Positions 15,191 through 53,878 are shown, counted from the first letter of the stretch. The stretch is 64,000 nt of DNA from a bacterium (GCA_021851895.1 JAJZQJ010000004.1:9127-73126); one strand, 5' to 3'. A program made the numbers and translations. The notes: generated from the letters alone by a model not told the origin.

Positions 15191-15191
15191 T

Positions 15192-15725: not shown

Positions 15726-15730
15726 TACTA

Positions 15731-15823: not shown

Positions 15824-15834
15824 TACTTAAACTT

Positions 15835-16188
15835 ATGATGAATAAAACACAGCAAAAGCAGTACAACCTCATGCGCCGAAGCAATCGCATTCGCGCAAAG
15901 ATCGTTGGAACTGCAGCAAAGCCTCGTCTCGCGGTCTTTCGTTCGACCGTACACATGCAGGCACAGCTCATCGATGATGTGAAGGGAATCACCCTCGCAG
16001 CCGCTCATGACCTCAAGGACATGAAGGGTACAAAGATGGAGCGCGCAGTCGCAGTGGGCAAGCAGCTCGCAGCAGCCGCAAAGGCAAAGGGTATTACAGC
16101 AGTCGTCTTTGATCGTGGAGGTTTCCTCTACGCAGGTCGCGTCAAGGCACTCGCAGATGCAGCTCGCGAAGGCGGTCTCGTCTTCTAA
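15835..16188 (+). CDS. rplR: 50S ribosomal protein L18
   Basis: ...RLAVFRS...[17 protein letters not shown]; start moved to ATG 15835 because the ORF's 5' end is the repeat arm. Confidence 0.85.
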
Positions 16189-16202
16189 TTCGAAATATCT
16201 AT

Positions 16203-16883: not shown

Positions 16884-16888
16884 AACAT

Positions 16889-17320: not shown

Positions 17321-17420
17321 TTATCCAATAGTGTAAGCGTGCGGAGTCGTGCTGCCGCAGCCCATGTTTCATGAGTTGCGCACACACTCCGACTGCTTAC
17401 TACTTCTAAACATTACGCGT

Positions 17421-18692: not shown

Positions 18693-18722
18693 AAACAAAC
18701 CCCGCAAGGGGTTTGTTTTTAG
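18693..18722 (+). terminator. rho-independent terminator after secY
   Basis: aaacaaaccccgcaaggggtttgttttt. Confidence 0.75.
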
Positions 18723-28421: not shown

Positions 28422-31400
<2,979 letters not shown>

Positions 31401-31513
31401 AGTCAGTTGACGACTTATGTTCTGAAACACGCAACATGTTCGACGCAGAAATGCGATAGTTGCTCAATGATTACACTTTTTGTTCAAGGATTCAGTTTAC
31501 TGATCCATTGTTT

Positions 31514-31638
31514 GCATTGATAGAGGTGGCTCGACGTTGTGGACCCACCCGGTCTCATTCCGAACCCGGAAGTGAAACATGATAGTGCCGATGATACTCC
31601 TCAGAAGGGGGAAAAGTAGGTAGCTGCCTCGATCAATG
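31514..31638 (+). rRNA. rrf: 5S ribosomal RNA
   Basis: ccggaagtgaaacatgatagtgccgatg... typical 5S; terminal helix cattgatagaggtggc / gctgcctcgatcaatg. Confidence 0.8.
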
Positions 31639-34294: not shown

Positions 34295-34548
34295 GCGGTC
34301 TTTTTCGCGGGGAAGGGTTCAGGCTTCGCTATCGCGGTACCATTGTACCGCTTCAAGCTCCAGCCAACCCTTCGCCGCGAAAAATCCGCGCGGTTTCATG
34401 ATGTAGATTGTGTTAGGATATAACGCTCCAGCCAAGCCGCCGCAGACAAAAATCCTCAGTGTTTCATAGTGTGACATATGTATAATAGTGTCATTCGTCG
34501 TCAAGCTCCAGCCAACCCTTCGCCACGAAAATCCCACGCGGTTTCATG
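34295..34548 (+). repeat. long-hairpin repeat copy B plus two partial tandem copies of its 3' module
   Basis: aagctccagccaacccttcgccgcgaaaaatccgcgcggtttcatg (34352-34400) repeated at 34501-34548 and degenerate at 34425-34468. Confidence 0.75.
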
Positions 34549-34634
34549 GCGTTGCATTTGTCAAAATTCCTCGCTATACATGGAGATTATCAGGTTTCAG
34601 TGGCTGTAAGCAAAGTCTCTGGTATACTATCATC

Positions 34635-35165
34635 ATGAAAGCGTCGAACGAAAAAGGTTTTACACTGATCGAACTTCTGGTTGTCATTGCGATCATCGGA
34701 TTGCTTTCGAGCGTCATCGTCGCTACGTTGTCTACGGCGCGAGCGAAGTCAAGAGATGCGCGTCGCATAAGTGACATACGAGAGATTCAGAAAGCCCTCG
34801 AGCTTTATGCGGACGATCATGGTGGACTCTATCCGACTTCAGCGAGCTTTGCGGATTATACGGAGGACGCAGGAGCGCTTGGTGCGAAGAAATATGTCAC
34901 AAGTAGGATGACTGAGTGGGATACAGTCTTTGCGCCACTAATTGCGGCATATATGAAGACAGTACCGAAAGACCCACTCAATGACCCTTGGCCCTATGTC
35001 TATTATTATCTTCCTGAAGGTCATGTCGCGTGTACATCCTCTGGTGTTATTGATGGCATGACGCGATATACATTGGTATTCTCGACAGAAGTAAGCAATT
35101 TCGATCTTCAGCAGATCTCCGCAGGGCAGGGAGGATCACAGGCGCGCTATTGTATGACGCCATAA
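34635..35165 (+). CDS. type IV pilin-like protein; paralog of 11811..12347
   Basis: MKASNEKGFTLIELLVVIAIIGLL...; ends RYCMTP; TATACT 6 nt upstream of ATG. Confidence 0.8.
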   Translation: MKASNEKGFTLIELLVVIAIIGLLSSVIVATLSTARAKSRDARRISDIREIQKALELYADDHGGLYPTSASFADYTEDAGALGAKKYVTSRMTEWDTVFAPLIAAYMKTVPKDPLNDPWPYVYYYLPEGHVACTSSGVIDGMTRYTLVFSTEVSNFDLQQISAGQGGSQARYCMTP

Positions 35166-38895: not shown

Positions 38896-39174
38896 ATGCA
38901 CAACCATGGACACACCTGCACGCCCGACAAGTCGCGTGCGCTCAAATTAGCAAAACAGGCAGAGGGAACGCTCCGCAAGGTCATTACGATGATCGAGGAG
39001 GATGTCTACTGTCCTGAGATCATTCAGCAGGCAGATAGTGCGATGGGTCTTTTGCGTACGATGCGCAAGGATCTCCTCGCGGGGCACTTGGATAGCTGCG
39101 CATTCGAACGCCTCAAGGAAAACAAGAAAGAGGCGATCGATGAACTGATGAAGATCTATAATCTCAATAGTTAA
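38896..39174 (+). CDS. csoR: CsoR/RcnR-family metal-sensing transcriptional repressor (Cu-type C-H-C ligand set)
   Basis: ...[20 protein letters not shown]...GHLDSC, 92 aa, directly upstream of the Cu-ATPase gene. Confidence 0.75.
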
Positions 39175-39175
39175 T

Positions 39176-41437
39176 ATGCAAACATCGACATATAAGATCA
39201 AGGGCATGCATTGCGCATCATGCGCAATAAGTATTGAGGATACCTTCAAGAAGACTGCAGGTGTTGTGTCTGCGAATGTGAACTACGGGACAGAGGCCGC
39301 AAAGGTCTCATTCGACGAAAGTACTATTTCGCCCGCAGATCTTTCAAAGAAGATCGAGCCATTAGGGTACTCGCTCGTCGTTGAGGAGGAGCAGACGATG
39401 GCGGGGATGGATCATGCAAAGATGGAGTCCGCAGATGAACTCAAAGTGATGGGACAGAAGGTCTTCTCGATGATCCCATTTGCGGTCATGAGTATCTTCA
39501 TCATGACTTGGGATATTCTCGGGAGCTTGCGGTATGTCCCGAAGATGTCAAATACTGAAGCTACCTTTTTCCATCACCTCTTGCCAGTGATGGCAACAGC
39601 AACACTCGCCGTGCTCGGACGACCTTATCTCTTGGGTATCTATCGTTTCATTCGTTATGGAAAGGCGAATATGGATACACTTGTCGGTATTGGTACTTCG
39701 GCCGCATTCCTCTATAGTTTTGCGCTCGGAGCTTTCGAAAATGTGCTTCGTCCATATCTCAACGTCGATCAAGGGTATTACGATGTGACCGTGGTCGTTC
39801 TCGTATTCATCGCGCTTGGTAAATATCTCGAGTTGCGCTCGAAACGCAAGACGGGAGATGCAATCGAGAAGCTGCTCAATCTGCAGGCAAAGAAAGCGCT
39901 CGTGCGTCGACAGGATGGCGAGATCGAAATCCCCATGGAAGAGGTCGTGCACGGCGACATCGTCATCGTGAAGCCCGCAGAAAAGATTCCTGTCGATGGT
40001 ACGATCATCGAGGGATCGACCTATGTCGATGAATCGATGATCTCAGGGGAACCGATGCCTGTAAAGAAGAATGTGGGCGATAGTGTCGTTTCGGGAACGA
40101 TCAATACGACGGGGGCATTTAGCTTTAAGGCGACAAAGGTCGGTAGTGAGACCATGCTCGCACGCATTATTGCGATGGTGGAAGATGCACAGGGAAGTAA
40201 GGCGCCGATCCAAGCGCTCGCAGATAAGATCTCTGCGGTATTCGTTCCTGTCGTTCTTGTGCTTGCCGTGCTTGCATTTGGATCTTGGCTGCTTGTCGCA
40301 CCGCAATATATCGGTTTTGCGAAGGCGCTCTCTGCCGGCCTCGTTTCATTCGTTGGTATCCTCGTGATCGCTTGTCCTTGTGCGCTCGGACTTGCAACGC
40401 CGACTGCGATCATCGTCGGTGTGGGCAAAGGTGCCCGTGAAGGAATACTTGTGAAGGATGCTGCAACACTTGAGACACTGCACAAGGCGAATGTCGTCGT
40501 ATTAGATAAGACGGGAACGATCACCAAGGGAAAGCCTGAGCTTGCCTCAGTCATGAACTTCTCTGGCCAGGACGATGAAGAGGTGCTCAGTGTGCTTGCG
40601 TCCCTCGAAAAGAAGTCTGAACATCCGATCGCACACGCTATTGTGACGCATGCAGCGGAGCGCAAGATCGCACTCAAGGAAGTCAAAGATTTCCAAGCGA
40701 TCAAAGGCAAGGGAATAGAGGGAACCATCGAAGATGTTGTCTATTATGCAGGAAATACAAAGCTCATCGCAGATCTTCGTCTTGCTTTCGATACCGCGAC
40801 GTTGGCTGAGGAAACGAAGAGAGGGAAGACACCGATCATCCTCGCAACAAAAGAAAAGGTCGTAGGAGTGGTTATGGTCGCTGATGCAGTGAAGCCGGAG
40901 GCTATTGTGGCGATCGCACACCTCCATAAGCTGGGTATCAAAACGGTGCTGCTTACGGGTGATGATAGCAATACTGCACTCGCCATCGCAAAAGAAGTCG
41001 GCATTGATGATGTGGTCGCAGAGGTGCTCCCTGAGGATAAACTCAATAAGGTAAAGGAATTACAGGCAAAGGGGCTTGTCGTTGCAATGGCTGGAGATGG
41101 CGTCAACGACGCACCCGCACTCGCACAGGCAAATGTTGGCATCGCGATGGCAACAGGCACTGATGTGGCGATTGAATCTGCAGGGATCACATTGCTTCAC
41201 GGTGACATTGCAAAACTCGTGAAGGCTATCGAGCTCTCCCGTGTCACCATGCGTACGATAAAACAGAATCTCTTTTGGGCTTTTATCTACAACATCATCG
41301 GCATCCCGCTCGCAGGCGGCGCATTCTATCCACTCTTCGGTTGGTTGCTCTCACCGATCTTTGCTGGACTTGCAATGGCATTCTCGAGCGTCTCCGTTGT
41401 TTCGAATTCATTGCGTTTGAAGATGATAAAACTTTAA
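39176..41437 (+). CDS. copA: copper-translocating P1B-type ATPase
   Basis: N-terminal [11 protein letters not shown]; CPC in TM6; DKTGTIT; [10 protein letters not shown]; YN....P and M..SS motifs of Cu(I) subtype. Confidence 0.9.
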
Positions 41438-41440
41438 TTC

Positions 41441-42475
41441 ATGGAAAATAAAAACACATATACATTTCACGTTAGCGGAATGCATTGCAAATCTTGCGTG
41501 CTTGTGACGGAAAGCAAGATCGGCGAAGCTGAGGGCGTAAGCGATGTGAAGACTGACCTCGCGACACAAACAGTACACGTCGTCGGCGACTTCTCGGGAA
41601 AGACGAGGGAGGAGGTGCGGGGTCTACTCTCTGCGACCATCGAAAAGCATGGATATGCCCTCGATGATGGAGCAGTAGAAGCTGATGGCGGAAAACGTTG
41701 GTCAGAGTTCGCATACGCACTTCCAATAGCGATGCTCTTCGTTTTTCTCTTCATCTTCTTGCAGCGCGTGGGGCTCGTGAATCTCATCGGTACAGGTAAG
41801 CCGACCTATGGCACCGCATTCATCGTCGGCATTGTCGCCTCGCTTTCATCATGTATGGCGGTTGTCGGAGGCCTCGTCCTCTCGATGGCAGCAACCTTCG
41901 CAAGGACAGGTGATCGCGTGAAGCCGCAGGTACTCTTTCACGTTGGTAGACTCGTTTCATTCTTCATCCTCGGTGGAGTTATTGGCATGCTCGGTTCTGC
42001 CTTTCAATTGAACGGATTGGGAACATTCATATTGTCGCTTGTCATCGGTGTGACAATGTTCATACTTGGTGTGAATCTCCTTGACATATTCCATGTAGCC
42101 AAAAAATTTCAGCTTGCGATGCCGAAGTTCCTTGGCGCTCATGCGATGAATCTTACGAAGGTCAATCACGCACTTACACCATTTCTCGTCGGTGTGGCGA
42201 CATTCTTTCTTCCTTGTGGTTTCACGCAATCGATGCAGATATATTCGCTTGGCACGGGGAGTTTCACGGTGGGCGCACTTACCATGTTCACCTTCGCACT
42301 GGGTACGCTTCCTGTACTTGCGCTGCTCTCATTCAGTTCGTTCGGAATTGCCGATGGTAAATGGTCTGGAGTGTTCTTTAAGACTGCCGGACTCATCGTC
42401 ATTGTCTTCGCGATTTTCAATATTATTAATGGGGCGGCCGCATTTGGTCTTATCCGTCCTGTCTTCAGCTTTTAA
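41441..42475 (+). CDS. HMA (CopZ-like) domain fused to a polytopic membrane domain (DsbD_2/TauE-like permease)
   Basis: N-terminus HVSGMHCKSCV; about 7 predicted TM helices. Confidence 0.5.
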   Translation: MENKNTYTFHVSGMHCKSCVLVTESKIGEAEGVSDVKTDLATQTVHVVGDFSGKTREEVRGLLSATIEKHGYALDDGAVEADGGKRWSEFAYALPIAMLFVFLFIFLQRVGLVNLIGTGKPTYGTAFIVGIVASLSSCMAVVGGLVLSMAATFARTGDRVKPQVLFHVGRLVSFFILGGVIGMLGSAFQLNGLGTFILSLVIGVTMFILGVNLLDIFHVAKKFQLAMPKFLGAHAMNLTKVNHALTPFLVGVATFFLPCGFTQSMQIYSLGTGSFTVGALTMFTFALGTLPVLALLSFSSFGIADGKWSGVFFKTAGLIVIVFAIFNIINGAAAFGLIRPVFSF

Positions 42476-42478
42476 TCG

Positions 42479-42895
42479 ATGAAAGAGATTTTTATAAGTG
42501 TTGTTGTTGCAGTCAGCCTCATGCTGATCGGGATGTTCTTTGCGGGAAGATTGAGTATCGGTGGAGCAGCGCAGGGTGATGCGGATAGTGGCAATCAGGC
42601 AAGTGTTCAGAATGTGAGTATGGTTGATGGCAAGCAAATCATCGAGGTTACCGCGCGTGGTGGCTACTCTCCACGTTTCTCGGTCGCAAAGGCAGGTGTA
42701 CCAACGGTCATTCGCATGAAAACAGAAGGGACGTTCGATTGCTCGTCGATATTCACATTACCATCGCTCGGTATACGTGAGGCGCTTCCATCGTCTGGGG
42801 TAAAGGATATCGACATACCCGCACAAGTATCAGGCACGACGCTCACGGGCACCTGTGCGATGGGTATGTATAGCCTCCAGGTACAATTCCAGTAG
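42479..42895 (+). CDS. membrane-anchored cupredoxin-like domain protein
   Basis: TM anchor then IEVTARGGYSPRFSVAKAGVPTVIRMKTEG...TGTCAMGMYS resembling the Cupredoxin_1 fold with C/M ligands. Confidence 0.45.
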   Translation: MKEIFISVVVAVSLMLIGMFFAGRLSIGGAAQGDADSGNQASVQNVSMVDGKQIIEVTARGGYSPRFSVAKAGVPTVIRMKTEGTFDCSSIFTLPSLGIREALPSSGVKDIDIPAQVSGTTLTGTCAMGMYSLQVQFQ

Positions 42896-43073
42896 AGTCA
42901 AAGTCATGAGTCCTTGTTTCAAGTCATGAGTCATGAGTGTGAGTCATGAGATAAATATAGGAATTCACAAAGAATACACAAGCAAAAATGCTCGTGTATT
43001 TTTCGTATTTGTTTGTTCTCATGACTCATGACTTTAACTCATGACATGAAACAAGGGCTCATGACTTGGCATT
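42896..43073. repeat. inverted-repeat element built from tandem GTCATGA/AGTCATG heptamers, with an internal terminator-like hairpin
   Basis: arms gagtcaaagtcatgagtccttgtttcaagtcatgagtcatgagtgtgagtcatgag and ctcatgactcatgactttaactcatgacatgaaacaagggctcatgac; core atacacaagcaaaaatgctcgtgtattttt. Confidence 0.8.
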
Positions 43074-43090
43074 ACGCCTGTGTTATTATT

Positions 43091-46000
43091 ATGGGAGCTA
43101 TGTTACCTAATGAGGAAATGCATGAAGTCGTACCAGCAGCGCCGATAGTCGAATCGGAACTCGCACACGTTCGTGAGCAGGTTTCTTTGCGCGAGGCAGT
43201 CGCCCAGGCTAAAGGCGTCGAGATGCCGCGCAGTCAGATCGTATCTAAGGTGCTTGCAGAGTATGCAGATCAGAAGCCCGAAGATGTACTTCCAGAACAT
43301 GCGATCATCGGCAATCCGAAATTCGAGGAGATCGTGCGCTCTGTCGATGCGCTTCCGCATCGCGAGAAGATTCGTGAGCTCTATGCGATCATGCAGGAGC
43401 GTGGCATATTGAATGCGATAAAAATCGCAGAAGGGCTCGGCAATCCTCACGTTGAGGAAGATTTTCATCATGTGCTCGTCCATTATGTGCATACCGGATC
43501 ACTTATACCTGGTCTCGATAAGGAAAAGGAGCTGCGTAAGGAATTAGATCGCACGGTATTTCAGGTGGTTGTTCCATTGCAGAAAGAGCGCGGTGAGGTG
43601 GATCCCCAGCAGGTACTGCTCTCTATGCAGCGTTTTCTCTCGGGCATCTTTGGTCAAGGTGGAGGTGACGTGCAGTATGCATTCGAGATAGCGCTCCCGA
43701 ACTTCTCCTCAGACGTTTCATTTTTTGTCACTGTTCCTGATGAGCAGAAAGACCTTTTCTTGAAGCAATTCTTGGGTAATTTCCCTACTGCAAGGGCGAT
43801 GCCGATCGATGATGACTACAATATCTTTAATGAGTTTGGTGTCTCAGCGGTCGCCGTCGGTAGGCATGAAAAGCGTTTCGCCTATGCACTTTCGGTTCCT
43901 GAGGGGGCGATGGAGTCCCTCTCACCTATCCTTGCTGCTTTTTCAAACATCGCGCATCAGGGTGAAGCTGCCGCGATTCAGTACATCGTTCGTAAAGACG
44001 ATCGGGATCTCTTGAAGAAGACCCGTTCCGCTATAGGAAAGATAAACGGTGGCATGAAGATCGGTGAGGCGACAGATATTCCGCTCACTCTTGGTGGCGA
44101 TACGATGAAATTCATCGGCAATCTTTTCTCTTCTGAAAAAGAGAAGTCGAAAGAGATCTCTCCTGAGGAGCAAGAACGACGTAATAGGGAGATCAAGGTC
44201 ATTGAAAATAAGACCGTTGCACCTTTTGTGCGTGTCGATCTGCGCATCATTGTGTCCTCTCCTGACCGCGATCGAACGATGCAAATTCTCAATGCACTCA
44301 TCGCGGCTTTTGGACAATTTGCGAACCGCGAATCGTCTGGTGGGCTACGCTTCGATGTGATCACGCGGGGAAGTGCGTTCGATGAGCAGCTCCACGCATT
44401 CACCTATCGCCTGGGAACGAATGATGCTCTTGTGTTGAATCACAATGAATTTTCTGGACTCTTTCATCCACCGCTTGCGATCACTGCAGCAGAAGCACCG
44501 AACCTCGCATCGATAAAATCTGCTACGGCTCCGCCCCCAGCACAACTTTCAGAGGAGGGGACTTTGCTCGGTGAAAGCGTCTATCGCGGTGTGCGAAAGC
44601 CTGTTCGCATGCTTCCACAGGATCGTCTCCGTCATCTCTATGTTATCGGTCAAACCGGTACAGGTAAGACCACGATCATGAAGAACATGATCATCGAGGA
44701 CATTAAGGCAGGTAATGGTGCGTGCTTCATTGATCCGCATGGTTCTGATGTGCAGGATATTCTCGCAAACATTCCCAGAGACCGTATTGATGATGTCATC
44801 TATTTTGATCCCTCATATACTGCGCGTCCGTTTGGGCTCAACATGCTCGAGTATGATGAATCTCGCCCCGAGCAGAAGATCTTTGTCGTGAATGAGCTGC
44901 TCGCGATCTTCAAGAAACTCTATTCGTCCTCACCAGAGTCGATGGGTCCCGCATTCGAGCAATATTTCCGTAACGCAACGATGCTCGTTATGGAGGATCC
45001 CGAAACAGGGAACACGATGCTCGAGATCACGCGCGTGCTTGCCGATGCGAAGTTCAGAGATTTGAAGCTCAGTAGGTGTAAGAACCCGATCGTCACACAG
45101 TTTTGGAGAGACATCGCAACAAAATCGACCGGTGAAGCATCGCTTGCGAACATGGTCCCGTACATCACGAATAAATTCGATGTATTCATTTCGAATGACG
45201 TGATGCGTCCGATCATCGCCCAGCAACGTTCCTCGTTCAACTTCCGGGATATCATGGATAACAAGAAGATCCTTCTTGTGAATCTCGCAAAAGGAAAGCT
45301 TGGTGAGATGAATGCGAATCTCCTCGGTATGATCATCGTTGGTAAGCTCTTCCTTGCTGCAATGAGTCGCGTGGATTCTTATGGTATGAAGTTGCCAGAC
45401 TTCTACCTCTATATCGATGAATTCCAAAACATCTCTACGCCATCGATCGCAGGAATCCTCTCTGAAGCAAGAAAGTATGGTCTTTCACTCAATATCGCAC
45501 ACCAGTTCATTGCGCAGATCGACCCTGAAATACGTGACGCGGTATTCGGTAATGTTGGTTCAATGGCAGTATTCCGTATCAGCGCAGACGATGCGCAGTA
45601 TCTCGAGTCGCACTTCTCTCCGACTTTCACCGCGACCGATCTTATGAAGATCGAGAGTCATAATTGCTATCTGAAGCCACTTATCAACGGAGTACCTGTT
45701 GCTCCATTCAATATTGCTGTATATCCGCCAAATAAGGGCGTTCCTCAAATCGTTGAGCAGTTACAGCAGCTCTCATACATGAAATATGGAAGAGAGCGTG
45801 AAGTGGTTGATAGTGCAATCGTAAAGAAATATCAGCAAACTGCAGCAGCGGCTTCGAATCAGCCAAAACCATCTGCGCCGGCAGCACCAGCACCAAAGCC
45901 TGCGCCAGCGCCGATGGTCCAGCAGCCATTTGTTCCGTCGCCGCAGGCTCTCGCATACCCTCAGCAGCAACCATTTGCGCAGCCACAAATGCAGCCTTAC

Positions 46001-46252
46001 CCACCACAGGGTTATGCATATCCTGCTCCGCAGATGCCGCCACAATATGCGGTCCCTCCGCAACCTTTCGTTCCCCATGGAAATACGGCACCATATATGT
46101 ATCCGCCCGTATATCCGCCGCCAATGTATCCTCCGCACCCAATGCAGGCGGGGCCCTATGGATATCCTCCGCAGTATATTCCGCCGCAGCAATATCCGCA
46201 GCCACCAGTCATGCCGCCGGAAATACATGAACATACGGATGATCAAAGATAA
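43091..46252 (+). CDS. HerA/VirB4/VirD4-superfamily (FtsK-HerA clade) P-loop ATPase with ~520-aa N-terminal domain and Pro/Gln/Tyr-rich C-terminal tail (start 43091/43100/43118 uncertain)
   Basis: Walker A VIGQTGTGKTT followed by FIDPHGSD; Walker B LYIDEFQNI; ARKYGLSLNIAHQ; tail PSAPAAPAPKPAPAP...YPPQ repeats. Confidence 0.55.
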   Translation: MGAMLPNEEMHEVVPAAPIVESELAHVREQVSLREAVAQAKGVEMPRSQIVSKVLAEYADQKPEDVLPEHAIIGNPKFEEIVRSVDALPHREKIRELYAIMQERGILNAIKIAEGLGNPHVEEDFHHVLVHYVHTGSLIPGLDKEKELRKELDRTVFQVVVPLQKERGEVDPQQVLLSMQRFLSGIFGQGGGDVQYAFEIALPNFSSDVSFFVTVPDEQKDLFLKQFLGNFPTARAMPIDDDYNIFNEFGVSAVAVGRHEKRFAYALSVPEGAMESLSPILAAFSNIAHQGEAAAIQYIVRKDDRDLLKKTRSAIGKINGGMKIGEATDIPLTLGGDTMKFIGNLFSSEKEKSKEISPEEQERRNREIKVIENKTVAPFVRVDLRIIVSSPDRDRTMQILNALIAAFGQFANRESSGGLRFDVITRGSAFDEQLHAFTYRLGTNDALVLNHNEFSGLFHPPLAITAAEAPNLASIKSATAPPPAQLSEEGTLLGESVYRGVRKPVRMLPQDRLRHLYVIGQTGTGKTTIMKNMIIEDIKAGNGACFIDPHGSDVQDILANIPRDRIDDVIYFDPSYTARPFGLNMLEYDESRPEQKIFVVNELLAIFKKLYSSSPESMGPAFEQYFRNATMLVMEDPETGNTMLEITRVLADAKFRDLKLSRCKNPIVTQFWRDIATKSTGEASLANMVPYITNKFDVFISNDVMRPIIAQQRSSFNFRDIMDNKKILLVNLAKGKLGEMNANLLGMIIVGKLFLAAMSRVDSYGMKLPDFYLYIDEFQNISTPSIAGILSEARKYGLSLNIAHQFIAQIDPEIRDAVFGNVGSMAVFRISADDAQYLESHFSPTFTATDLMKIESHNCYLKPLINGVPVAPFNIAVYPPNKGVPQIVEQLQQLSYMKYGREREVVDSAIVKKYQQTAAAASNQPKPSAPAAPAPKPAPAPMVQQPFVPSPQALAYPQQQPFAQPQMQPYPPQGYAYPAPQMPPQYAVPPQPFVPHGNTAPYMYPPVYPPPMYPPHPMQAGPYGYPPQYIPPQQYPQPPVMPPEIHEHTDDQR

Positions 46253-46280
46253 AAGACACCCTAATGGGTGTCTTTTATCG
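46252..46280. terminator. bidirectional terminator
   Basis: aaaagacaccctaatgggtgtctttt. Confidence 0.65.
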
Positions 46281-47015
46281 TAGTGCCGCTTTGAATCTAT
46301 CGATCACACTATCGAATAGTGCGAGTTCTTGTATCGTGCATATCGCGTGCTTTTCCTTTCGTGCGTCGCTCATGCGCATTGATATGTTTCCTGCAATGCC
46401 GAGCACGGTTGTTGCAGCACCGACGAGTGCGGCGATGGTGGTTATCCCTGCATTGGCCTCGCTCATGACGTCAGAGACGACCGCCCCGATGACGCAAAAG
46501 AGTGCAACAGAGAATCCGATCATAAACACGCGGTGTTGTGCATCTCTGTTGCGGAAATGGCGTGCATAGAGCTTCCGCTCAAGCTCATCGGTGGGGAGTC
46601 CGACGATATCATGAAGTGGAAGCTCTATATATTTCGCGAGCTCCACGCGTGCGCGTGTACGTGCGTCATCGAGTTTCGTGATAATACGATTGGCAGAGGC
46701 GGCATCAACCTCTATGGTCCGTGAGGTGATCTCTCCATCGCTGACTTCCTTTAGGCGCGTAATGCACTGTTCGTCCGAGTAGGGGATTCGCGCATAGGGA
46801 GTATTCATATTCTGCGCCATGCTTGGGATGCCAAAGCTCGTGAACTGCACAGTGACTTTTCTTGATTGGCGATCATTTATATCATGTTCATTCGGCTGCA
46901 TATGCCCGAAATATGCCTCAGCTCCTCGTGCGATACGCGAAGTCTCACCTTGGTTGTCTGGCTGCACTTCTCCTTCGTTTGTTTCCGCACCCTTCTCTGA
47001 AGATTCATTCATCAC
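46275..47015 (-). CDS. hypothetical membrane protein (C-terminal TM helices)
   Basis: ORF; hydrophobic segments FMIGFSVALFCVIGAVV and TTIAALVGAATTVLGIAG. Confidence 0.45.
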   Translation of the reverse strand: MMNESSEKGAETNEGEVQPDNQGETSRIARGAEAYFGHMQPNEHDINDRQSRKVTVQFTSFGIPSMAQNMNTPYARIPYSDEQCITRLKEVSDGEITSRTIEVDAASANRIITKLDDARTRARVELAKYIELPLHDIVGLPTDELERKLYARHFRNRDAQHRVFMIGFSVALFCVIGAVVSDVMSEANAGITTIAALVGAATTVLGIAGNISMRMSDARKEKHAICTIQELALFDSVIDRFKAALR

Positions 47016-47163
47016 TTTATTATACTACAGCATTTGTTATCAGCGGTGCTGTCCAAAATTTATTGCATGTATACTGCACGTCCATGCTGATTTTGTGTTA
47101 CAATGTATACATTATTGCCTTTCTTGGAGGAGGGCATGCTTTGTCAATAAATAATCTTTTACC

Positions 47164-50100
47164 ATGGGAAAACGCGAAGGACAATCGATAGGAGGATTCT
47201 CGGCGCTTGGCGCAGCATTCGAGGGGCAAGAGCTTCCGATAGCTCCTGAGCCGAGACCAGCAGAGGAGGATCCGATCCCGAACAGCGCAGACACTGCTGG
47301 CGACCCTATCATCTTCGAAAATCATAGATATATTTTTGATGGTTATGATGCTGATGGTATGGCACGCCTTGAGGATTATTACTCTGGTGATATGAATGTT
47401 CCTCCAACGATAAAGCTCGTGACGCGCGAGCAGCTCCTCGAAGGTTTTCGTTTGGCAAAAGAGGATGAAGCAGCGGAAGAACGTCGAGCAATAGAAGGAG
47501 GTGAGCGCGCAGAGCGCGAGGCGGCTGCACGCATGGCGCAGGATATCGAGCATGGTATCGCACCATCATTGGCAGTAGATAATGAAATCGCGCGCGACGA
47601 GGTTGCTGTACAAGCGGCGGTCGATGTGGCAGAAGCAGTTCCTGCTCTTGCATCAGATGAATCAATGACTACCCCTCCTGGCATGGAGCCCGTTCCACCA
47701 CAGCCTGAAGGCGAGCTTTCTGTGGATGATCAGCCCGAGAGGGCAAAGTGGCTCAACGTGGCGATTACACGCCTTATCGAGGTTGAAGGGCAGCTCAGGG
47801 CTCTAAAAAATAAAAATGGTCAAAAGCGTAAGGTTGGAGAATTATATCTGAAGCGCGACAAACTCGATGAAGAGATCCATGGAGTATTGAATGAAGTTGC
47901 ACCCGAGGTACTCAAAAGCATAAGGGTTGATGATTACGCACATATTGAAAATATGCGAGAGCTCTTCGGTAGTGAAAGAGATATTGTTGCACGCAAGGAG
48001 AAGGAGCAAGCATTGATCGCAGAGGGGAAGATCACTCAAGATGATCTCGATGCCTACAAAGCAGCACTTGCAAAGCGTAGCGAATTCATCAGCTCAATGA
48101 AAAAGATCGGTGTTCCTCATCACGTCGCAACGCGTCTCTTCCGAAATGAAGTAGACGAATTGCGCGCATTGGAGCAGGTCATTGCACGTGCCGATGTCCG
48201 AGACGCAAAGGTCTTGGATACACGGCAGGCGAAGCATCTTCTATCGCGTTTCGGTGTTAAGGATGAAAAAATTGAGTGGTATAAGGAAGTCATGCGTAAG
48301 AAGATCGAAGCAAATGAACCGCTGGCTCCAGACGAGTTTTCATCCTTTGTTTCGCGAGGCCAAGAGAGGCCGGTAGTGCCCGCTGCTCCAGATGTGCTTT
48401 CTGCAACTGAAGCATCAGCGCAACACTCAGACACCTCGGGGAATGAATCTGCTTTAGTTACTAATGCGAGCGAGGACATTGATCGTGAGATAGCAAGACT
48501 CGAATATAAATTGAAGAATACAGGATTCAGTTCTCTTACTGAAATGCGTGCTGCAAAAACTCGACTTGAAGAGTTGAAGCAAGACAAGGCAACGCTAGTG
48601 GGGAGAAATAAGCCTACTGCTTCAAAAAAGGATGATAGTGCATCTCCTGAGGTGAAGCGTGAGGATATTGCAGGAGTACTCGCCGAGGAACAAGAAGTTA
48701 AGGAGACCATTGCAAGAGATCGTCAACTCCAAGATGAAGCAGAACTTATCATCAAGCTCGAAGAGGAGATCGCGGGACTTACTGGTGGCAATAGAAAGGA
48801 ATATTTCGAGAATGTATTACGTGGTCTTACTGATGCGCACGAGGCGTTCTCTCGAGATAAGAAGGCGAGGTTATCGGACGGTCCACTTGCGCAATTGAAA
48901 AAATTGTCTGGAGAGATCGTTGCTCTACGAGAAGAGGGCGCTGCGCTTAGTGAGCGTAACCCGATTTCTCTACACGTACTCGAGGCGTTCAGTAAAGAAG
49001 GTGTCGAGTATGCCGACCTTGAAGCTATTCCAGGTTTCGTGGGGCTTAGTGAGGGGCAACAATTGTTGATGCTCAAGAACTATAGCACCGCGGTCGTCAA
49101 TAAAGTGAAGCGCGAGGCGAAGAGCGAGTCTGATGCAGCATGGAGTGAGCGAACATTCCTCGGCAAGCTTGGTCTCAGCATGCTGACGCTTGGTCTAGCA
49201 AAGAACATCAGTGAGCAGGCAAGACAGCGTGATATCGCACGAAAATTGAGCTCGGGAGAGAAGCTGGTCAAAGAGGAGCGTAGAGTCATGCTCGAAGCGT
49301 TTGCGAAGATCGCTATAGAGGGACCAGAAGTGGAACGAAGTGCAGACGGAGCCTTGCATACGCATTATCTTGCAACGGAGCGTTTCAAGGATGACAAGGA
49401 GGCACTCGAAGCAGTCAATGCGTATAATCGTGTAGCAGAAAAGTTCGCGAAATTGCCGAAGCAGTGGATCGATGCGGATCTTGCATTGCCACGTAATGAG
49501 CAACAGAGTTATTTCTCTAAATTGCTCGGCAAGAAGCACATGATGCTTTCTGGCAAAGAACACCTCGAGGTTGCAGAGACGAAGGAGGAATATCAAGAGT
49601 CGAGGAAACGCTTGCTCGCGGTCCTTGAGAAGCACAATGATAAGGAGCCGGGTGTAGAGGCGCGACGTAGCGCGATGCTCGAGATGAATGCGCTCGATGA
49701 ACGCGTCCAGCTCGATCAATTGTTCGCCTCGAATCCTGATGCCGAGGAGGCACTGCAGGACATAAGGGATACGAATGTGTTCACGCGTGCACTCAGTGAG
49801 TTCGGTAAACACCGCGGTCAATATATCGCATATGGTGCGGCGACGCGCTTTGTAGCGACAGCTGTCGTGGGTGCTATCGCAATACCGGGCACTATGGCTA
49901 TTGCCGGTGGTGCGGTCGCTGTCGGTGTCGCAGGCGCGGTCGGATATTTCCAGGCGCGCCGAGAGGCAAAGGAACTTTTGAAGACACGAAGAGCTTCGGG
50001 GCTCCTTAGTGATGAAGATCTTCGTGAGGATGTTGCATATACCGTCAACAACAGTGAGATCCTCGGACGTAAGGAAGAGGCGCACGCAGCAGCCCTAGAG

Positions 50101-52488
50101 AAGGGTGATCAAGAGCTTGCGAATCTCATAAAGCAGGACATCGATATCTTGCGCGGCAAGGTGAAGTCCGGTTCAGTAATTGAGCGAAGGATCAAACAGT
50201 TGAAGGAGTTCAAAGATGCGAAGTTCTATACTGATCGCATTGAACGCCTGCTGACGAAACTTGATGTAGCGAACGATATGGGTGATAAGGCGGCTGCAGA
50301 GACGATCGAGCGCAAGATCGCGCAAACCGCAACACTTATGCGTGAGCTCATGAAGCAGGGTATGCTGAGTTTTGGTGCCGAGAGTAGACTCGCGCGGGTA
50401 CATACGCGCCTCGATGGCGGTCCGCAGAAGGACCGTCATGATGATGCGGATGTTGCAATAAATAGCCTTGCATTCATGCAGGCACTCGGTCATGCAGATG
50501 CGGTCCATTCGCTCGACATGTCTGCGATAGAAGAGAAGCTCGAGAAGACACTCGGCGGATATCGTGAAGATATTGATGCCGCAGCGCGAAAGCGAAGTAC
50601 AAAACATGTCGCAAAAGCAGTTGCATTGCGTGCTGGATTCGGACTCGCAGGTTATGGTCTCGCGCGCGCAGGTATGCAATTCTTTGGAGGACATGGGGAA
50701 CAGGTCACACAACATGCGCATGGTGCAACACATGGACAGCCACATCAGTGGGCATTACCGAAGACTCCAGCACCAAAGACACATACTTGGGCATTGCCGG
50801 AGACGCCACGACCACCAGTTGCAAGCATAGAGCATGGCGGCCTTGCGCTTGGAGTACATACGGTCGCACATGGAGAGACGTTGACCGCGATCGCACGAAA
50901 GTTCCCTGAAATTGCGAAGCTTTCGGGGCATGACCAAGAAGTCGCTATTGCGAATCTCGTGAAGCATCTTTCTCCAGAGAAATTGAAGCTTCTTGGTATC
51001 TCAAGTGGTAACCCTAATCTCATTCGCACGGGTGAACATATCGATCTTACGAAGCTCCACGAGGAATTCGTCTCACTGAAGACCAGTGGTGCGCAGGTGG
51101 CAGCACATGCGGACAAGGTGATTCATCATGAGGTCGCTCCACGAGCAGGGGGTCAGGTCGTTCACGAAGACATGGGTGCAGAGAAGGAGGCTCAAGAAGC
51201 AGCGCATGCGCCGATGCGCATTCCTGCTCGCGGAAGAGTCAATCTTCCTCCTGGGTCACGACATGATGGGGTTGATGAGAGTATGCCCCATCCTCGACAT
51301 AAGGGTGGGTTCACGCTACCTCCTCCTGTCCCAGGTCAAGAAATACCACATTTCGGTTCTCCAATGGAGGCAGCTGCAGTCGTTCAGAATAAGATGGATC
51401 ATGCATTGAAGAGCATATTCGGTCAAAAGGGTCTCTTTGGTAGAGATCATACGAGGGAATGGGAAGGTGATCCACTTTCTCGAGTGCATGGACTCAAGGA
51501 TGCACCCGCACAACGTATGCTTGAGCATCGTTCCGGACTCCTTGCGGAATCTCGAACGCGTATGGGGCTGCGCAACTATATGCAAGAGTTGCATGGTCGC
51601 ACGCATATTGAGCCGCGCACGGGTGAGACGACGGAGATGTATATAAGACGCGCATTACTCTCTGAGGAGGGTGGTGTGCATGATGCGGTGAAGGCTCCCG
51701 TCAGTGAAATGAAGGAACTCGTACTCTCGCGCGTAGCTGAGGAGGTACATTCGACGAACGAAGCACTCGATGCATTTATTCCGAAGTTCATGAAGCGGTT
51801 TCCTGAAATCGCGCATGAGAGTGAGAGTGCTCGCGTGCAGACGATCGTCAATTTCTTACGCACTGCGAAGCCACAGCATTTTAAAGCGCTCGGCCTGAAC
51901 GGAGACGATATGCAGGCGCATATCGCGGGTGGAAGGCTTGATGCTGCACGTCTTACCGCATATCTTCATCAGCAAGGAGGAGCATCGCAGTCGATGCCGC
52001 ATGCAGTTGCTGAGAGTGCGCATCAGACTGTGCAAGCGCACATTCCGTCTGCAGAGAAGGTGATTCCAGGACCTGCGACGGCAACTGAAGGCGGACATTT
52101 GGCTCCGCTTTCACATGACGATGTCGTCATCATGGAGAAACGTTGGGATGATCTTACTGTGCTCAATAGGTCAGAGCTCGCTAATCGTATGGTTCCTGAT
52201 TACATCGATCGGGACATCGTGTCGCATCTGAAAGGCGCAGACCCAGAACATCTCATGAGCGCGCTGAAGGATCTTCCGATGCGCTTACTCTTCGCTGATA
52301 AGGAGAGTCTCGCAAAGACGATGGATCCAGGTGTTGCTGACGGTGTTGTCGCGCTTGGAAAGATCGTTACTGAAAGACATCTCATGAATATGGAAGAGGG
52401 TATCGACTGGGAGCAGCCAATTTCTACTTTTGTGAAAGAGGCTTACTTGAAGAAGTTACTCAGTGAGGGTCCTACTGCATTCAAATGA
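47164..52488 (+). CDS. giant (1774 aa) charged, coiled-coil-rich protein with central glycine-zipper TM hairpin, His-rich segment, WALP.TP.P mini-repeat and LysM-like segment
   Basis: E/K/R/A-rich heptad-like sequence over about 850 aa; FVATAVVGAIAIPGTMAIAGGAVAVGVAGAVGYF; HTVAHGETLTAIARKF...NLIRTGEHIDL resembles LysM. Confidence 0.6.
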   Translation: MGKREGQSIGGFSALGAAFEGQELPIAPEPRPAEEDPIPNSADTAGDPIIFENHRYIFDGYDADGMARLEDYYSGDMNVPPTIKLVTREQLLEGFRLAKEDEAAEERRAIEGGERAEREAAARMAQDIEHGIAPSLAVDNEIARDEVAVQAAVDVAEAVPALASDESMTTPPGMEPVPPQPEGELSVDDQPERAKWLNVAITRLIEVEGQLRALKNKNGQKRKVGELYLKRDKLDEEIHGVLNEVAPEVLKSIRVDDYAHIENMRELFGSERDIVARKEKEQALIAEGKITQDDLDAYKAALAKRSEFISSMKKIGVPHHVATRLFRNEVDELRALEQVIARADVRDAKVLDTRQAKHLLSRFGVKDEKIEWYKEVMRKKIEANEPLAPDEFSSFVSRGQERPVVPAAPDVLSATEASAQHSDTSGNESALVTNASEDIDREIARLEYKLKNTGFSSLTEMRAAKTRLEELKQDKATLVGRNKPTASKKDDSASPEVKREDIAGVLAEEQEVKETIARDRQLQDEAELIIKLEEEIAGLTGGNRKEYFENVLRGLTDAHEAFSRDKKARLSDGPLAQLKKLSGEIVALREEGAALSERNPISLHVLEAFSKEGVEYADLEAIPGFVGLSEGQQLLMLKNYSTAVVNKVKREAKSESDAAWSERTFLGKLGLSMLTLGLAKNISEQARQRDIARKLSSGEKLVKEERRVMLEAFAKIAIEGPEVERSADGALHTHYLATERFKDDKEALEAVNAYNRVAEKFAKLPKQWIDADLALPRNEQQSYFSKLLGKKHMMLSGKEHLEVAETKEEYQESRKRLLAVLEKHNDKEPGVEARRSAMLEMNALDERVQLDQLFASNPDAEEALQDIRDTNVFTRALSEFGKHRGQYIAYGAATRFVATAVVGAIAIPGTMAIAGGAVAVGVAGAVGYFQARREAKELLKTRRASGLLSDEDLREDVAYTVNNSEILGRKEEAHAAALEKGDQELANLIKQDIDILRGKVKSGSVIERRIKQLKEFKDAKFYTDRIERLLTKLDVANDMGDKAAAETIERKIAQTATLMRELMKQGMLSFGAESRLARVHTRLDGGPQKDRHDDADVAINSLAFMQALGHADAVHSLDMSAIEEKLEKTLGGYREDIDAAARKRSTKHVAKAVALRAGFGLAGYGLARAGMQFFGGHGEQVTQHAHGATHGQPHQWALPKTPAPKTHTWALPETPRPPVASIEHGGLALGVHTVAHGETLTAIARKFPEIAKLSGHDQEVAIANLVKHLSPEKLKLLGISSGNPNLIRTGEHIDLTKLHEEFVSLKTSGAQVAAHADKVIHHEVAPRAGGQVVHEDMGAEKEAQEAAHAPMRIPARGRVNLPPGSRHDGVDESMPHPRHKGGFTLPPPVPGQEIPHFGSPMEAAAVVQNKMDHALKSIFGQKGLFGRDHTREWEGDPLSRVHGLKDAPAQRMLEHRSGLLAESRTRMGLRNYMQELHGRTHIEPRTGETTEMYIRRALLSEEGGVHDAVKAPVSEMKELVLSRVAEEVHSTNEALDAFIPKFMKRFPEIAHESESARVQTIVNFLRTAKPQHFKALGLNGDDMQAHIAGGRLDAARLTAYLHQQGGASQSMPHAVAESAHQTVQAHIPSAEKVIPGPATATEGGHLAPLSHDDVVIMEKRWDDLTVLNRSELANRMVPDYIDRDIVSHLKGADPEHLMSALKDLPMRLLFADKESLAKTMDPGVADGVVALGKIVTERHLMNMEEGIDWEQPISTFVKEAYLKKLLSEGPTAFK

Positions 52489-52491
52489 TAA

Positions 52492-52521
52492 AAACCAGAG
52501 CCTTGCTCTGGTTTTTGTTTT
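52492..52521. terminator. bidirectional terminator
   Basis: aaaccagagccttgctctggtttttgttttt. Confidence 0.75.
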
Positions 52522-53148
52522 TCAGTGATGGTGTGCGCAGCAGTGCTGTTTGCCACTGCGTGCGTCCTTCAGGATCTGCATCGTCCAAATAAACATCCAT
52601 AGTGCGATGCCAAAGGAGAGCAGTGGGTCAATGATGGGACGATGGGTGAATGCGATCACCATCGTACCGACGACGACTGCGACACTCTGCGCGAGATCGG
52701 AGAGGATGTGTACGTCGAGTGCGCGTTTGGTGATGTTGTGTGCCGTGTCCTTCGTAGTGACGATATAGTGCTGCGCGTAGTTGCCGAACGTACCCAAGAC
52801 GGCGATCGTAATGACCCAACCGAGGTCGAGTACGCGCGGAGCCTGGAGGCGTTCGTACGCTTCCTTTGTCATCCAGAGACAGACGATGATGAGCAGTAAG
52901 GCCTGGGCATAGGCTCCATACCTTCTGATCTTTGCGACGTGTTCAGGTTTCTTGTCGCGGACGAATAGCGAGATGGCAAGTGCCATGCTGATCGCTCCCG
53001 CGTCAGCAAGGACATGCCAGGCATCGCCAACGAGCGCGAGACTGTGTGCGTGACTGCCGACGACGATCTCCATGATGAAGATCATGACGGCGAGCAGAAG
53101 AACGAATGCATAGCGTTTCGGTTCATCGTGGTCGTGGGTATACCCCAT
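52522..53148 (-). CDS. cation diffusion facilitator (CDF) family transporter, TM-domain only, His-rich C-terminus
   Basis: HSLALVGDAWHVLADAGAI signature; 6 TM; RBS gaggtg before ATG 53148. Confidence 0.7.
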   Translation of the reverse strand: MGYTHDHDEPKRYAFVLLLAVMIFIMEIVVGSHAHSLALVGDAWHVLADAGAISMALAISLFVRDKKPEHVAKIRRYGAYAQALLLIIVCLWMTKEAYERLQAPRVLDLGWVITIAVLGTFGNYAQHYIVTTKDTAHNITKRALDVHILSDLAQSVAVVVGTMVIAFTHRPIIDPLLSFGIALWMFIWTMQILKDARSGKQHCCAHHH

Positions 53149-53269
53149 GAAACACCTCAAAAAGTACGAGCTCTTTCCAGATTAGGGGACTATGGTGTCA
53201 TTGTCAAACGTCATTGCGCAAACGATTGAGCATGCTATCATTCCGATATTAATATTTCATTTTCTGAAT

Positions 53270-53878
53270 ATGGATAAGAATCATCCTCGTTATGAACGTA
53301 CATTTGTGATTGTAAAACCTGATGGTGTGCAGCGTGGTCTCTCGGGAGAGGTCATCGAGCGCATCGAGCGCTCAGGCCTCAAGATGATCGGCATGAAGTT
53401 CATGGTTGCGACACGCGAGCAGGCAGCAAAGCATTATGGTAAGGACGATGCATGGTGTGCAAAGGTCGGTCAGCGCACCGTCGATCGCATCATCAGTGAG
53501 GGCGGAAAGCCAGAGAAGGAGGCAGTCGCATATGGTCGCGATGTCCTGAATGGACTCCTCGATTTCCTCACGTGCTCTCCGATCGTCGTGATGGCATGGG
53601 AGGGAAACCAGGCAGTTGGTATCGTCAAGAAGATCGTCGGTGGTACAGAGCCGCTTACAAGTGATGTGGGTACGATTCGTGGCGACCTCACGCTCGATTC
53701 CTATGACATCGCAAACATCGATGGACGTGCAGTCCGCAACTTGGTCCACTGCTCGGATATGGTAGAGGAGGCGAAGCGAGAGCTCGCGATCTGGTTCAAG
53801 GAGGAGGAGCTTATTAAGTGGAAGTCGATACAGGAGAAGATGCTGTATGATGTGAATCTCGACGGCATCCTAGAATAG
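53270..53878 (+). CDS. ndk: nucleoside diphosphate kinase with C-terminal extension
   Basis: ERTFVIVKPDGVQRGL..., catalytic region ...NLVHCSD; ORF opens at 53192. Confidence 0.75.
   Translation: MDKNHPRYERTFVIVKPDGVQRGLSGEVIERIERSGLKMIGMKFMVATREQAAKHYGKDDAWCAKVGQRTVDRIISEGGKPEKEAVAYGRDVLNGLLDFLTCSPIVVMAWEGNQAVGIVKKIVGGTEPLTSDVGTIRGDLTLDSYDIANIDGRAVRNLVHCSDMVEEAKRELAIWFKEEELIKWKSIQEKMLYDVNLDGILE

Follow-up and report, generated by a model that had tools for sequence, protein, structure and literature searches.

A coupling protein-like ATPase and an adjoining family of giant, predicted wall-anchored membrane proteins in Paceibacteria

Introduction

Little is understood of the way in which Patescibacteria, which depend on other cells, exchange material with their hosts. 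The question raised here by a 64,000-nucleotide stretch of bacterial DNA (GCA_021851895.1, JAJZQJ010000004.1:9127-73126), which in its entirety we call the window and in whose own numbering positions are given, is whether an ATPase and a giant protein encoded at positions 43,091 to 52,521 work together, and at what. The ATPase belongs to the FtsK-HerA superfamily, the giant protein comprises 1774 amino acids (aa), and a divergently oriented gene for a 246-aa membrane protein lies between the two. A first-pass annotation of the sequence had described these three open reading frames (ORFs), and all were found in the places and at the sizes that it gave; their lengths, together with homologues in independent assemblies, mean that they are neither chance ORFs nor the product of an assembly fusion. 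Nearly all of the sequence motifs quoted for the ATPase and the giant are likewise present in the translations.

Thousands of coupling-protein-like ATPases are encoded in Patescibacteria far from secretion systems, with no role assigned to them, and the ATPase of the window is a member of this recognised, uncharacterised class. We find that the DUF8128 family to which it is related is a fixed core gene of Paceibacteria, we define a large unannotated family of giant proteins predicted to reach from the cytoplasm to the cell wall, and we identify a lineage in which a giant regularly accompanies the ATPase and the latter has acquired a C-terminal tail. The giant family, the split form of its LysM module and the pairing with a tailed ATPase appear to be undescribed in the literature searched, where neither a paper on giant proteins of such kind in Patescibacteria nor a mention of DUF8128 was found. 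We favor, at a probability of roughly 35%, a reading in which the giant spans the envelope and, anchored in peptidoglycan, serves the ATPase as a platform. The pairing supplies an orphan motor with a candidate partner and with testable contact surfaces; were it to prove coincidental, the present account would still be the first architectural description of the giant family.

A predicted motor of the type IV coupling protein kind

The ATPase gene and its parts are as follows (TM, transmembrane; T4CP, type IV coupling protein; AF2, AlphaFold2).

43028-46252, plus strand: longest form of the ATPase ORF, 1074 aa
43100-46252, plus strand: DUF8128/T4CP-like ATPase gene from its probable true start, 1050 aa; start taken from the homologue alignment and a conserved -10 box
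43100-44527, plus strand: N-terminal alpha/beta domain (Pfam DUF8128 in homologues), without TM segment; from PF26449 on homologues, AF2 and Foldseek
44585-45832, plus strand: P-loop motor domain, with Walker A GQTGTGKT at 44648-44671, Walker B YLYIDEF at ~45404-45424, then EARKYGLSL..AHQ
45833-46249, plus strand: low-complexity Pro/Gln/Tyr-rich C-terminal tail, read in the translation

The motifs VIGQTGTGKTT, FIDPHGSD, LYIDEF and EARKYGLSLNIAHQ were read directly, as was the Pro/Gln/Tyr-rich tail. Profile and fold searches bore out the proposed membership of the FtsK-HerA superfamily, the protein having the RecA-like core, the Walker A and Walker B motifs and the superfamily fold, and placed it on the VirB4/VirD4 side of that superfamily, not with FtsK. 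Matches to family profiles of Pfam and NCBIfam were all weak and fell on coupling-protein or HerA-type models. Among the Pfam families, TrwB_AAD_bind scored 26.7 bits against a cut-off of 20.5, with no single stretch significant, TraG-D_C 21.8 bits against 22, and DUF87 20.6 bits against 23.2, around Walker A only; CagE_TrbE_VirB (PF03135) and FtsK_SpoIIIE gave no match. The NCBIfam TraD/VirD4 models reached 15-39 bits against cut-offs of 250-650 (SXT_TraD, 38.8 against 366) and VirB4_plasma 16.7 bits against 590. With a profile of 18 family members, TrwB was the sole significant relative of solved structure by sequence (E 5e-4).

The AF2 model of the ATPase has a mean predicted local distance difference test score (pLDDT) of 67; the N-terminal domain is modeled well (70-90 over model residues 20-470) and the motor poorly in parts, including seven helices between Walker A and Walker B (model residues 578-706) where the score lies below 50-65. 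The best Foldseek match to this model was TrwK, the VirB4 protein of R388, aligned over the full length (E 4e-8, ~900 columns), and in both fold searches FtsK ranked far under VirB4, TrwB and HerA. A Kyte-Doolittle scan found no TM segment, the sole candidate (761-779) sitting inside the motor core, and of the FtsK hallmarks the FtsK_SpoIIIE motor profile, the N-terminal TM domain and the C-terminal gamma (KOPS-binding) domain are all missing from the protein.

Homologues P0002-P0018 are 42-80% identical to the ATPase, and the named ones come from metagenome-assembled genomes of Candidatus Paceibacterota. PF26449 (DUF8128) is precomputed in the N-terminal half of homologues P0004-P0018 and of the ATPases at three further loci (L091, L093 and L094); for the window ATPase itself no DUF8128 match is on record, and its N-terminal domain aligns throughout with those of the homologues. 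More distant relatives, at 22-32% identity in tblastn searches, are encoded by plasmids and large phages. One, on a 65-kb plasmid of Bacillus subtilis, lies upstream of TcpD/TcpE-type conjugation genes in the position of a coupling protein and is also devoid of TM segments; others are found on the Sulfolobus conjugative plasmid pING1, on haloarchaeal and Streptomyces plasmids, and in the large Bacillus phages G (gp156), SP-10 and SPO1 (gp27.4). Additionally, phrog_5156, a family of unknown function, matches residues 204-913 (E 9e-66).

Taken together, the weak T4CP-type profiles, the TrwB/VirB4 fold and the plasmid relatives point to a T4CP/VirB4-like motor that does not group with FtsK. Since the ATPase has neither the TM anchor nor the gene context nor the curated scores of a T4CP or VirB4, we describe it as working like these proteins and not as a member of either family. 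By its sequence and model, it is probably a P-loop motor akin to type IV coupling proteins, soluble and assembling into a ring.

Several other matches were set aside: that of Pfam RecA to residues 338-409 (23.9 against 27 bits), a charged low-complexity stretch, is spurious; that of a PHROG terminase (E 7e-8) covers the P-loop only; and those of PADLOC mad8 (6e-14, in the motor) and HerA (P-loop only) come with no partner genes and do not denote a defense system, since the giant and the 246-aa ORF match nothing in PADLOC and no methylase or nuclease adjoins them. Separately, several ATPase tails (P0006-P0008, P0010, P0013 and P0016) share a short conserved end, D-[PQA]-Y-R-E, absent from the window tail, which may serve as a peptide for docking.

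A core gene in a housekeeping slot

When species were scanned by one representative genome each, a relative of the ATPase turned up in at least 581 of the genomes, and the best 80 of these are all of Patescibacteria type (Paceibacteria, Nomura-, Zambryski-, Taylor- and Campbell-bacteria). Across 91 loci, the upstream neighbors are chiefly map (42), adk (37) and secY (27) and the downstream neighbors ndk (45) and a beta-CASP RNase (35), followed by IF3/L35/L20. No relaxase or mating-pair genes occur within 10 kb in the window and related loci, the neighbors being map, ndk, the beta-CASP RNase and ribosomal genes; nor do virB3, virB6 or virB8, or the HerA partners NurA, Sir2 or DUF4297, stand beside the ATPase. 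Throughout Paceibacteria the ATPase belongs to the core genes, is inherited vertically and occupies a housekeeping slot, mostly without a dedicated neighbor. The suggestion that the locus is a remnant or mobile module finds no support here, the metal genes near it, described below, being the insertions.

This distribution has a published counterpart. Quinonero-Coronel et al. (2025; PMC12102498) report 5,713 VirD4-type homologues from 2,918 genomes of Patescibacteria, just 148 of these homologues being encoded close to virB4, together with a separate bona fide VirB4 clade encoded near dnaA; the VirD4-type homologue is described there as non-essential in Southlakia, and exaptation to other functions is suggested.

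Two further observations concern the upstream flank of the ATPase. A protein of 535-540 aa is encoded between map and the ATPase in L004 (8227-9837), L007 (8316-9938) and L094 (3119-4726), with mutual identities of 48-54%; it is absent from the window, has no Pfam match and bears no similarity to the giant N-terminus or the 246-aa ORF, of which it had been considered a possible relative, and it could be a further partner of the ATPase. In other Paceibacteria, large surface proteins of unrelated kinds occupy the position directly upstream, namely L078 145-3345, L085 6309-9089, L041 6701-9307 and L005 8872-9867, with the domains Big + PG_binding_1, PG_binding_1 + InlB B-repeat, DUF11/CARDB and CAP. 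The ATPase flank looks like a variable region for envelope proteins.

A family of giant membrane proteins

The giant gene and its parts were delimited from alignments, a hydropathy scan and an AF2 model of residues 599-1340 (pLDDT 73), for which a 32-sequence alignment served as input.

47164-52488, plus strand: giant membrane protein gene, 1774 aa, zero internal stops; full-length homologues P0020 and P0021
47164-48957, plus strand: variable, charged, helix-rich N-terminal region, aa 1-598, predicted cytoplasmic
48958-49818, plus strand: conserved, predicted cytoplasmic helical core, aa 599-885, the family signature
49819-49968, plus strand: Gly/Ala-rich TM hairpin, aa 886-935, with Arg/Lys-rich flanks on both sides; Kyte-Doolittle 1.53-1.99
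49969-50610, plus strand: alpha/beta loop domain, aa 936-1149, between the hairpin and the third helix, predicted cytoplasmic
50611-50688, plus strand: third Gly-zipper helix, weakly hydrophobic, aa 1150-1175; from sequence, alignment A3 and the AF2 model
50689-50847, plus strand: linker with His-rich block and two WALP.TP.P mini-repeats, aa ~1176-1222, read directly
50848-51069, plus strand: putative split LysM module, aa 1229-1302; from family profile A6 and the AF2 model
51790-51963, plus strand: second, degenerate and partial split-LysM copy, aa 1543-1600; from hmmsearch with A6

The giant is not a fusion artefact, having no internal stops and homologues in independent assemblies. Word-based searches turned up two full-length relatives only, both encoded beside the two closest ATPase homologues; a word-indexed search with a profile of the core returned just two proteins, and an exhaustive profile search returned 597 cluster representatives at E<=1e-3, 371 at <=1e-10 and 62 at <=1e-30. 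Members are mostly 700-2561 aa long. No Pfam family covers them, and matches of Pfam DUF7091 and NCBIfam PVV_CTERM to the giant were both under cut-off. BLAST among the large ORFs 3' of the ATPase delimits a common core at window residues ~600-1190 and 1200-1330, shared at 23-68% identity.

The region before this core varies from 1 to 1490 aa across the family and contains a hydrophobic segment in only 6 of 144 members; in the window giant, 28-40% of the residues in aa 1-598 are charged, and similarity is confined to the close sub-lineage. That the giant is devoid of a signal peptide agrees with the hydropathy scan, which found no N-terminal hydrophobic segment. Of the ~850 aa of coiled coil initially proposed, the heptad-like segments stand; their extent does not, a crude heptad scan assigning them ~400 residues in nine segments and residues 599-885 being a modeled helical domain. 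The helical core, of ~290 aa, is predicted with pLDDT 80-96. The Gly-rich TM hairpin that follows was recovered (aa 886-935, Kyte-Doolittle maximum 1.99), a hydrophobic segment occupies its position in 125 of 144 family members, and in alignment A3 its G..R and Pro are conserved. The loop domain, of ~215 aa, is modeled with high confidence (pLDDT 90-97 over model residues 360-470) and has a conserved REF.DA.F..DRIERL motif. The third helix, with AGFA.AG conserved in A3, forms the end of a long helix (522-577) in the AF2 model and is preceded by a basic stretch and followed by a His-rich one; it is putatively a further TM segment. The His-rich block and the WALP.TP.P repeats, two in number at aa ~1176-1222, were found as annotated, and this linker is conserved only within the close sub-lineage.

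Taken with a LysM module on the outside, the positive-inside rule favors a topology in which the N-terminus lies in the cytoplasm, the hairpin returns the chain to a cytoplasmic loop domain, and the third helix carries the C-terminus outside. The overall layout proposed for the protein, in which an extended helical region, placed here in the cytoplasm, precedes a Gly-rich TM hairpin and a wall-binding module derived from LysM, is thus upheld as a prediction. The likeness to phage tape-measure proteins that had also been suggested is not: Pfam, NCBIfam and PHROG gave no tape-measure match to the giant, its context is not that of a phage, and its predicted topology is that of a membrane protein.

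Additional observations on individual family members are that the L004 homologue (2514 aa; 14237-18706) carries a PP2C/SpoIIE-type phosphatase domain (E 1e-12) in its presumed cytoplasmic N-terminal extension, that L009 encodes two tandem paralogues 3' of one ATPase (6671-10192 and 11995-16220, the second cut off by the contig end), and that the members at L092 126-6564 and L097 2798-6963 stand beside toxin-antitoxin-type genes (HEPN, nucleotidyltransferase + HepT-like, Fic), not the ATPase.

A putative split LysM module

The LysM-like segment of the first-pass annotation fails as a LysM domain on its own and is recovered at the level of the family. Against Pfam LysM, the window segment scores 15.1 bits (E 0.023) with a cut-off of 20.9, matching profile positions 1-16 only, and one of 32 family members scores 5e-5. 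The family profile A6 (28 sequences) matches solved LysM domains at E 3e-7 to 3e-6, namely LytE (3e-7), SafA (1.2e-6, both halves aligned) and Ecp6 (2.6e-6), and the window module of ~75 aa scores 89 bits against that profile. In the AF2 model the module (pLDDT 89-96) has strands at both ends and four helices instead of two, the two LysM halves being split by a helical insert of ~35 aa. We read the module, from profile and model, as a LysM with an insertion, which should on the strength of this likeness be extracellular and bind peptidoglycan. A second copy at aa 1543-1600 was detected with A6 (hmmsearch, 18.3 bits, i-E 2e-6) and is also present in L001 and L002.

Pairing of the ATPase and the giant

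The association of the two proteins was surveyed in 89 loci, 15 with a giant and 74 without. Wherever the ATPase is at least 53% identical to that of the window, a giant-family ORF comes next, downstream and on the same strand; this holds for 14 of 14 loci, a clade made up of 11 from the genome scan (L001-L004 and L007-L013), L091, L094 and the window. At identities of 49% or less, a giant adjoins the ATPase in none of 74 loci. Adjacency is kept despite divergence of the giants to 23-25% identity, and it is kept in L093, where the order is swapped (giant, 27-nt gap, ATPase, ndk). Outside the clade, an ORF with the LysM part of the giant family lies 79 nt upstream of the ATPase in L026; of the large ORFs beside the ATPase in distant loci that might have been cryptic giants, only this one is, the rest being elongation factor G or unrelated surface proteins.

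The ATPase tail follows a similar distribution. Past the conserved end of the protein, 14 of the 15 giant loci have a Pro/Gln-rich tail of 46-423 aa (~100-140 aa in the window), and in the 74 giant-less loci the tail has a median length of 2 aa and a maximum of 65. Comparison of gene neighborhoods thus confirms that ATPase and giant are conserved together in relatives. An obligate pairing is not borne out, the ATPase occurring without the giant in 74 of 89 loci and the giant family occurring also away from the ATPase.

The gene between the two in the window is specific to its sub-lineage:

46275-47015, minus strand: 246-aa gene, its N-terminal region predicted cytoplasmic and followed by two C-terminal TM helices

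Its two TM segments were identified by hydropathy scan, homologues occur only in L001 and L002, in the same position and at 48-49% identity, and searches of Pfam, NCBIfam, PADLOC and PHROG gave zero family matches.

Proposed mechanism and alternatives

The platform reading starts from the homology, domain architecture, predicted topology, synteny and tail-giant co-occurrence described above, and would add to them a contact between ATPase and giant, oligomerization, a substrate and a direction of transport. The conserved cytoplasmic core of the giant would recruit the ATPase, possibly through the Pro/Gln/Tyr-rich tail gained in this lineage; the Gly-zipper helices might oligomerize in the membrane, and the LysM ectodomain would fix the assembly to the cell wall. 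So stationed at membrane and wall, the ATPase could feed DNA or protein to an export or exchange machinery. A bolder form, in which ATPase and giant constitute a self-contained minimal translocon (motor, Gly-zipper pore and wall anchor) with which this lineage moves DNA or proteins to or from its host independently of the canonical VirB4-type type IV secretion system (T4SS), strikes us as improbable.

Some of the evidence weighs against the platform reading, and much of it suits an alternative that we regard as unlikely on balance, though a serious competitor: that the neighbors have no common function, the ATPase serving the chromosomal T4SS of Patescibacteria, encoded elsewhere, or some other housekeeping translocation and the giant being an independent envelope scaffold (for the wall, division or host attachment) in a variable slot between ATPase and ndk. 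The ATPase occurs without the giant in most Paceibacteria, 74 of 89 loci in the survey, many with ndk directly downstream, and three of six distant members of the giant family (L092, L097 and L098) have no ATPase beside them. A divergent gene for a membrane protein of 246-283 aa separates the pair in the window, L001 and L002, so that in the window the two are not one operon, and metal-resistance genes have been inserted at the same locus. Unrelated surface or peptidoglycan-binding proteins flank the ATPase in other lineages (L041, L078, L085 and L005), for which reason the position may be a mere variable slot, and gene order is generally well kept in these small genomes, the ATPase and ndk being likewise neighbors with no obvious functional link. 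The co-occurrence of tail and giant is essentially one phylogenetic event, and L093 has a giant and an ATPase without tail. Within the giant itself, the third helix is weakly hydrophobic, which makes the topology a prediction, and the L003 giant is without a LysM module. The scarcity of Patescibacteria T4CP homologues near virB4 (148 of 5,713; PMC12102498) points the same way. Set against unshared functions are the adjacency in 14 of 14 clade loci over deep divergence of the giants, its persistence through the swap of gene order in L093, the gain of the ATPase tail in the same lineage, and the LysM-part ORF 79 nt upstream of the ATPase in L026, outside the clade.

Other alternatives assign the pair a different joint role. 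The giant could be a substrate or client of the ATPase, the motor aiding insertion or export of its 600-aa C-terminal part, which we hold to be a long shot: T4CPs such as VirD4 and DotL recognize protein substrates, the giant has no N-terminal signal peptide and yet its LysM is expected outside, and large surface or peptidoglycan-binding proteins adjoin the ATPase in other lineages; but Sec/YidC can use internal TM helices as signal anchors, which makes a special motor unnecessary, the surface proteins of L041 and L085 are themselves equipped with hydrophobic N-terminal segments, most ATPase loci are without such a neighbor, and a motor for one substrate is unlikely to be conserved as a core gene. 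Lower still do we rate an FtsK/FtsN-like division module, with the ATPase as an FtsK-like DNA pump at chromosome or septum and the giant as its septal anchor. The housekeeping position of the gene, a Pro/Gln-rich low-complexity region comparable to the FtsK linker and a partner predicted to bind peptidoglycan would suit such a module, whereas the fold searches, which put FtsK far under VirB4, TrwB and HerA, and the lack of an FtsK_SpoIIIE match, a TM anchor and a gamma domain in the window ATPase speak against it. Finally, a prophage or mobile-element remnant, with a tape-measure-like giant and an ATPase for packaging or transfer, is very improbable. It would account for the phrog_5156 match (E 9e-66), for relatives in large Bacillus phages and for the length, helicity and internal hydrophobic stretch of the giant, superficially like those of a tape measure; against this, the giant has no tape-measure match and the predicted topology of a membrane protein with LysM outside, no phage, integrase or relaxase genes were seen near the locus in profile scans of the neighborhood, GC content is unremarkable, and in hundreds of species the locus keeps its place among ribosomal and housekeeping genes.

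Surroundings of the pair in the window

The following element precedes the ATPase gene:

42901-43067, no strand assigned: GTCATGA-heptamer inverted repeat around a terminator-like hairpin (42967-43006), upstream of the ATPase gene and outside it

Its 51-nt arms are 82% complementary, each consisting of an array of four GTCATGA heptamers, and surround the hairpin between a cupredoxin-like gene and the ATPase. A smaller heptamer repeat is present at the same place in L001 (~4816-4925), and none in L002 or L003. The repeat had been taken to bracket the locus; its arms lie on either side of the terminator of the upstream operon, and the locus is not enclosed by them. The translation start of the ATPase is most probably 43100 (MLPNEEMHE) and not 43028, because 17 homologues begin at the equivalent of MLPNEEMHE (homologue start MSLIEEMHE), because the ATG at 43028 falls within the heptamer inverted repeat, and because a -10-like box, TGnTATTAT, conserved in L001 and L002, immediately precedes 43100. 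This extended -10-like box lies ~10 nt before the ATPase start in three genomes (window 43061-43100, L001 ~4925-4952 and L002 ~9980-10001), a position that suggests a very short or absent transcript leader.

Metal-resistance genes do adjoin the locus, as first noted. A cassette upstream (38896-42895) encodes a CsoR-type repressor, a CopA P-type ATPase, an HMA-DsbD_2 membrane protein and a cupredoxin-like protein, and a truncated-looking cation diffusion facilitator (CDF) transporter of 212 aa is encoded downstream (52522-53160). Copper and metal genes surround the pair in the window, L001 and L002 only; they are missing in L003 and L004 and are therefore insertions, the ATPase not being part of an island. 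A match of the Pfam P23-45 portal family to the DsbD_2 protein was under cut-off and is due to chance.

Elsewhere in the window, 23S and 5S rRNA genes (28429-31632) have no adjoining 16S gene inside the window, and a tmRNA gene is also present. A 225-aa protein bearing the N-terminal methylation motif of type IV pilins is encoded at 34488-35165, between the L10/L12 genes and that for methionyl-tRNA synthetase (MetRS); in L003, PilB/PilT-type ATPases lie directly upstream of the same ribosomal genes. The product of ndk (53192-53878), of 228 aa, is extended at its N-terminus, and its Pfam NDK match is broken into two stretches by an insertion.

Comparison with known systems

Tape-measure proteins are very long, rich in helix and hydrophobic over an internal stretch, and some carry a wall-binding or lytic module at the C-terminus; the giant shares with them its length, helicity, internal hydrophobic stretch and predicted C-terminal wall-binding module. 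Unlike them, it has a conserved, predicted cytoplasmic core, positive-inside flanks and a housekeeping context, with no tail genes. With the LysM wall anchors LytE, SafA, MltD and Ecp6 it has in common both halves of the domain, Y.V..GDTL..I and GN.D.I..G..I.L, which coincide with the predicted terminal strands and have helices between them; it differs from these proteins in the ~35-aa insert and in the host of the module, a 1774-aa polytopic protein with an 885-aa predicted cytoplasmic part and no catalytic domain.

For the ATPase, VirB4 (TrwK of R388) offers the best two-domain fold similarity of all proteins searched, with TM-scores of only 0.25-0.34 that leave the equivalence of the N-terminal domains unestablished; the ATPase has no CagE_TrbE_VirB match and no virB3, virB6 or virB8 neighbors. 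T4CPs (VirD4/TraG/TrwB) resemble it in the weak TraG-D_C and TrwB_AAD_bind matches and in a helical insertion that is predicted, at low confidence, to separate the two Walker motifs. The likeness is closest to large TM-less forms, namely the DUF87 protein of a B. subtilis plasmid of pLS20 size and the "ATP-binding protein" of pING1, with which the Walker A context RHLxVxGxTGxGKS/T ... DPxG is shared; the Bacillus protein likewise has a large N-terminal domain and no TM segment. Classical VirD4 and TrwB differ from the ATPase in having an N-terminal TM anchor and relaxase or mating-pair neighbors, and T4CPs in general differ from it in that the ATPase is a chromosomal core gene with a DUF8128 N-terminal domain and curated scores far under cut-off. 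The orphan T4CP homologues of Patescibacteria are the same class of object; their description, as far as it was consulted, does not mention DUF8128, the map-ATPase-ndk position, the Pro/Gln-rich tail or a giant neighbor (PMC12102498). Among annotated proteins, the nearest relatives of the ATPase are, to judge by sequence, the TM-less coupling-position ATPase of the pLS20-size Bacillus plasmid and the ATPase of the archaeal plasmid pING1, and, to judge by predicted fold, TrwB and VirB4.

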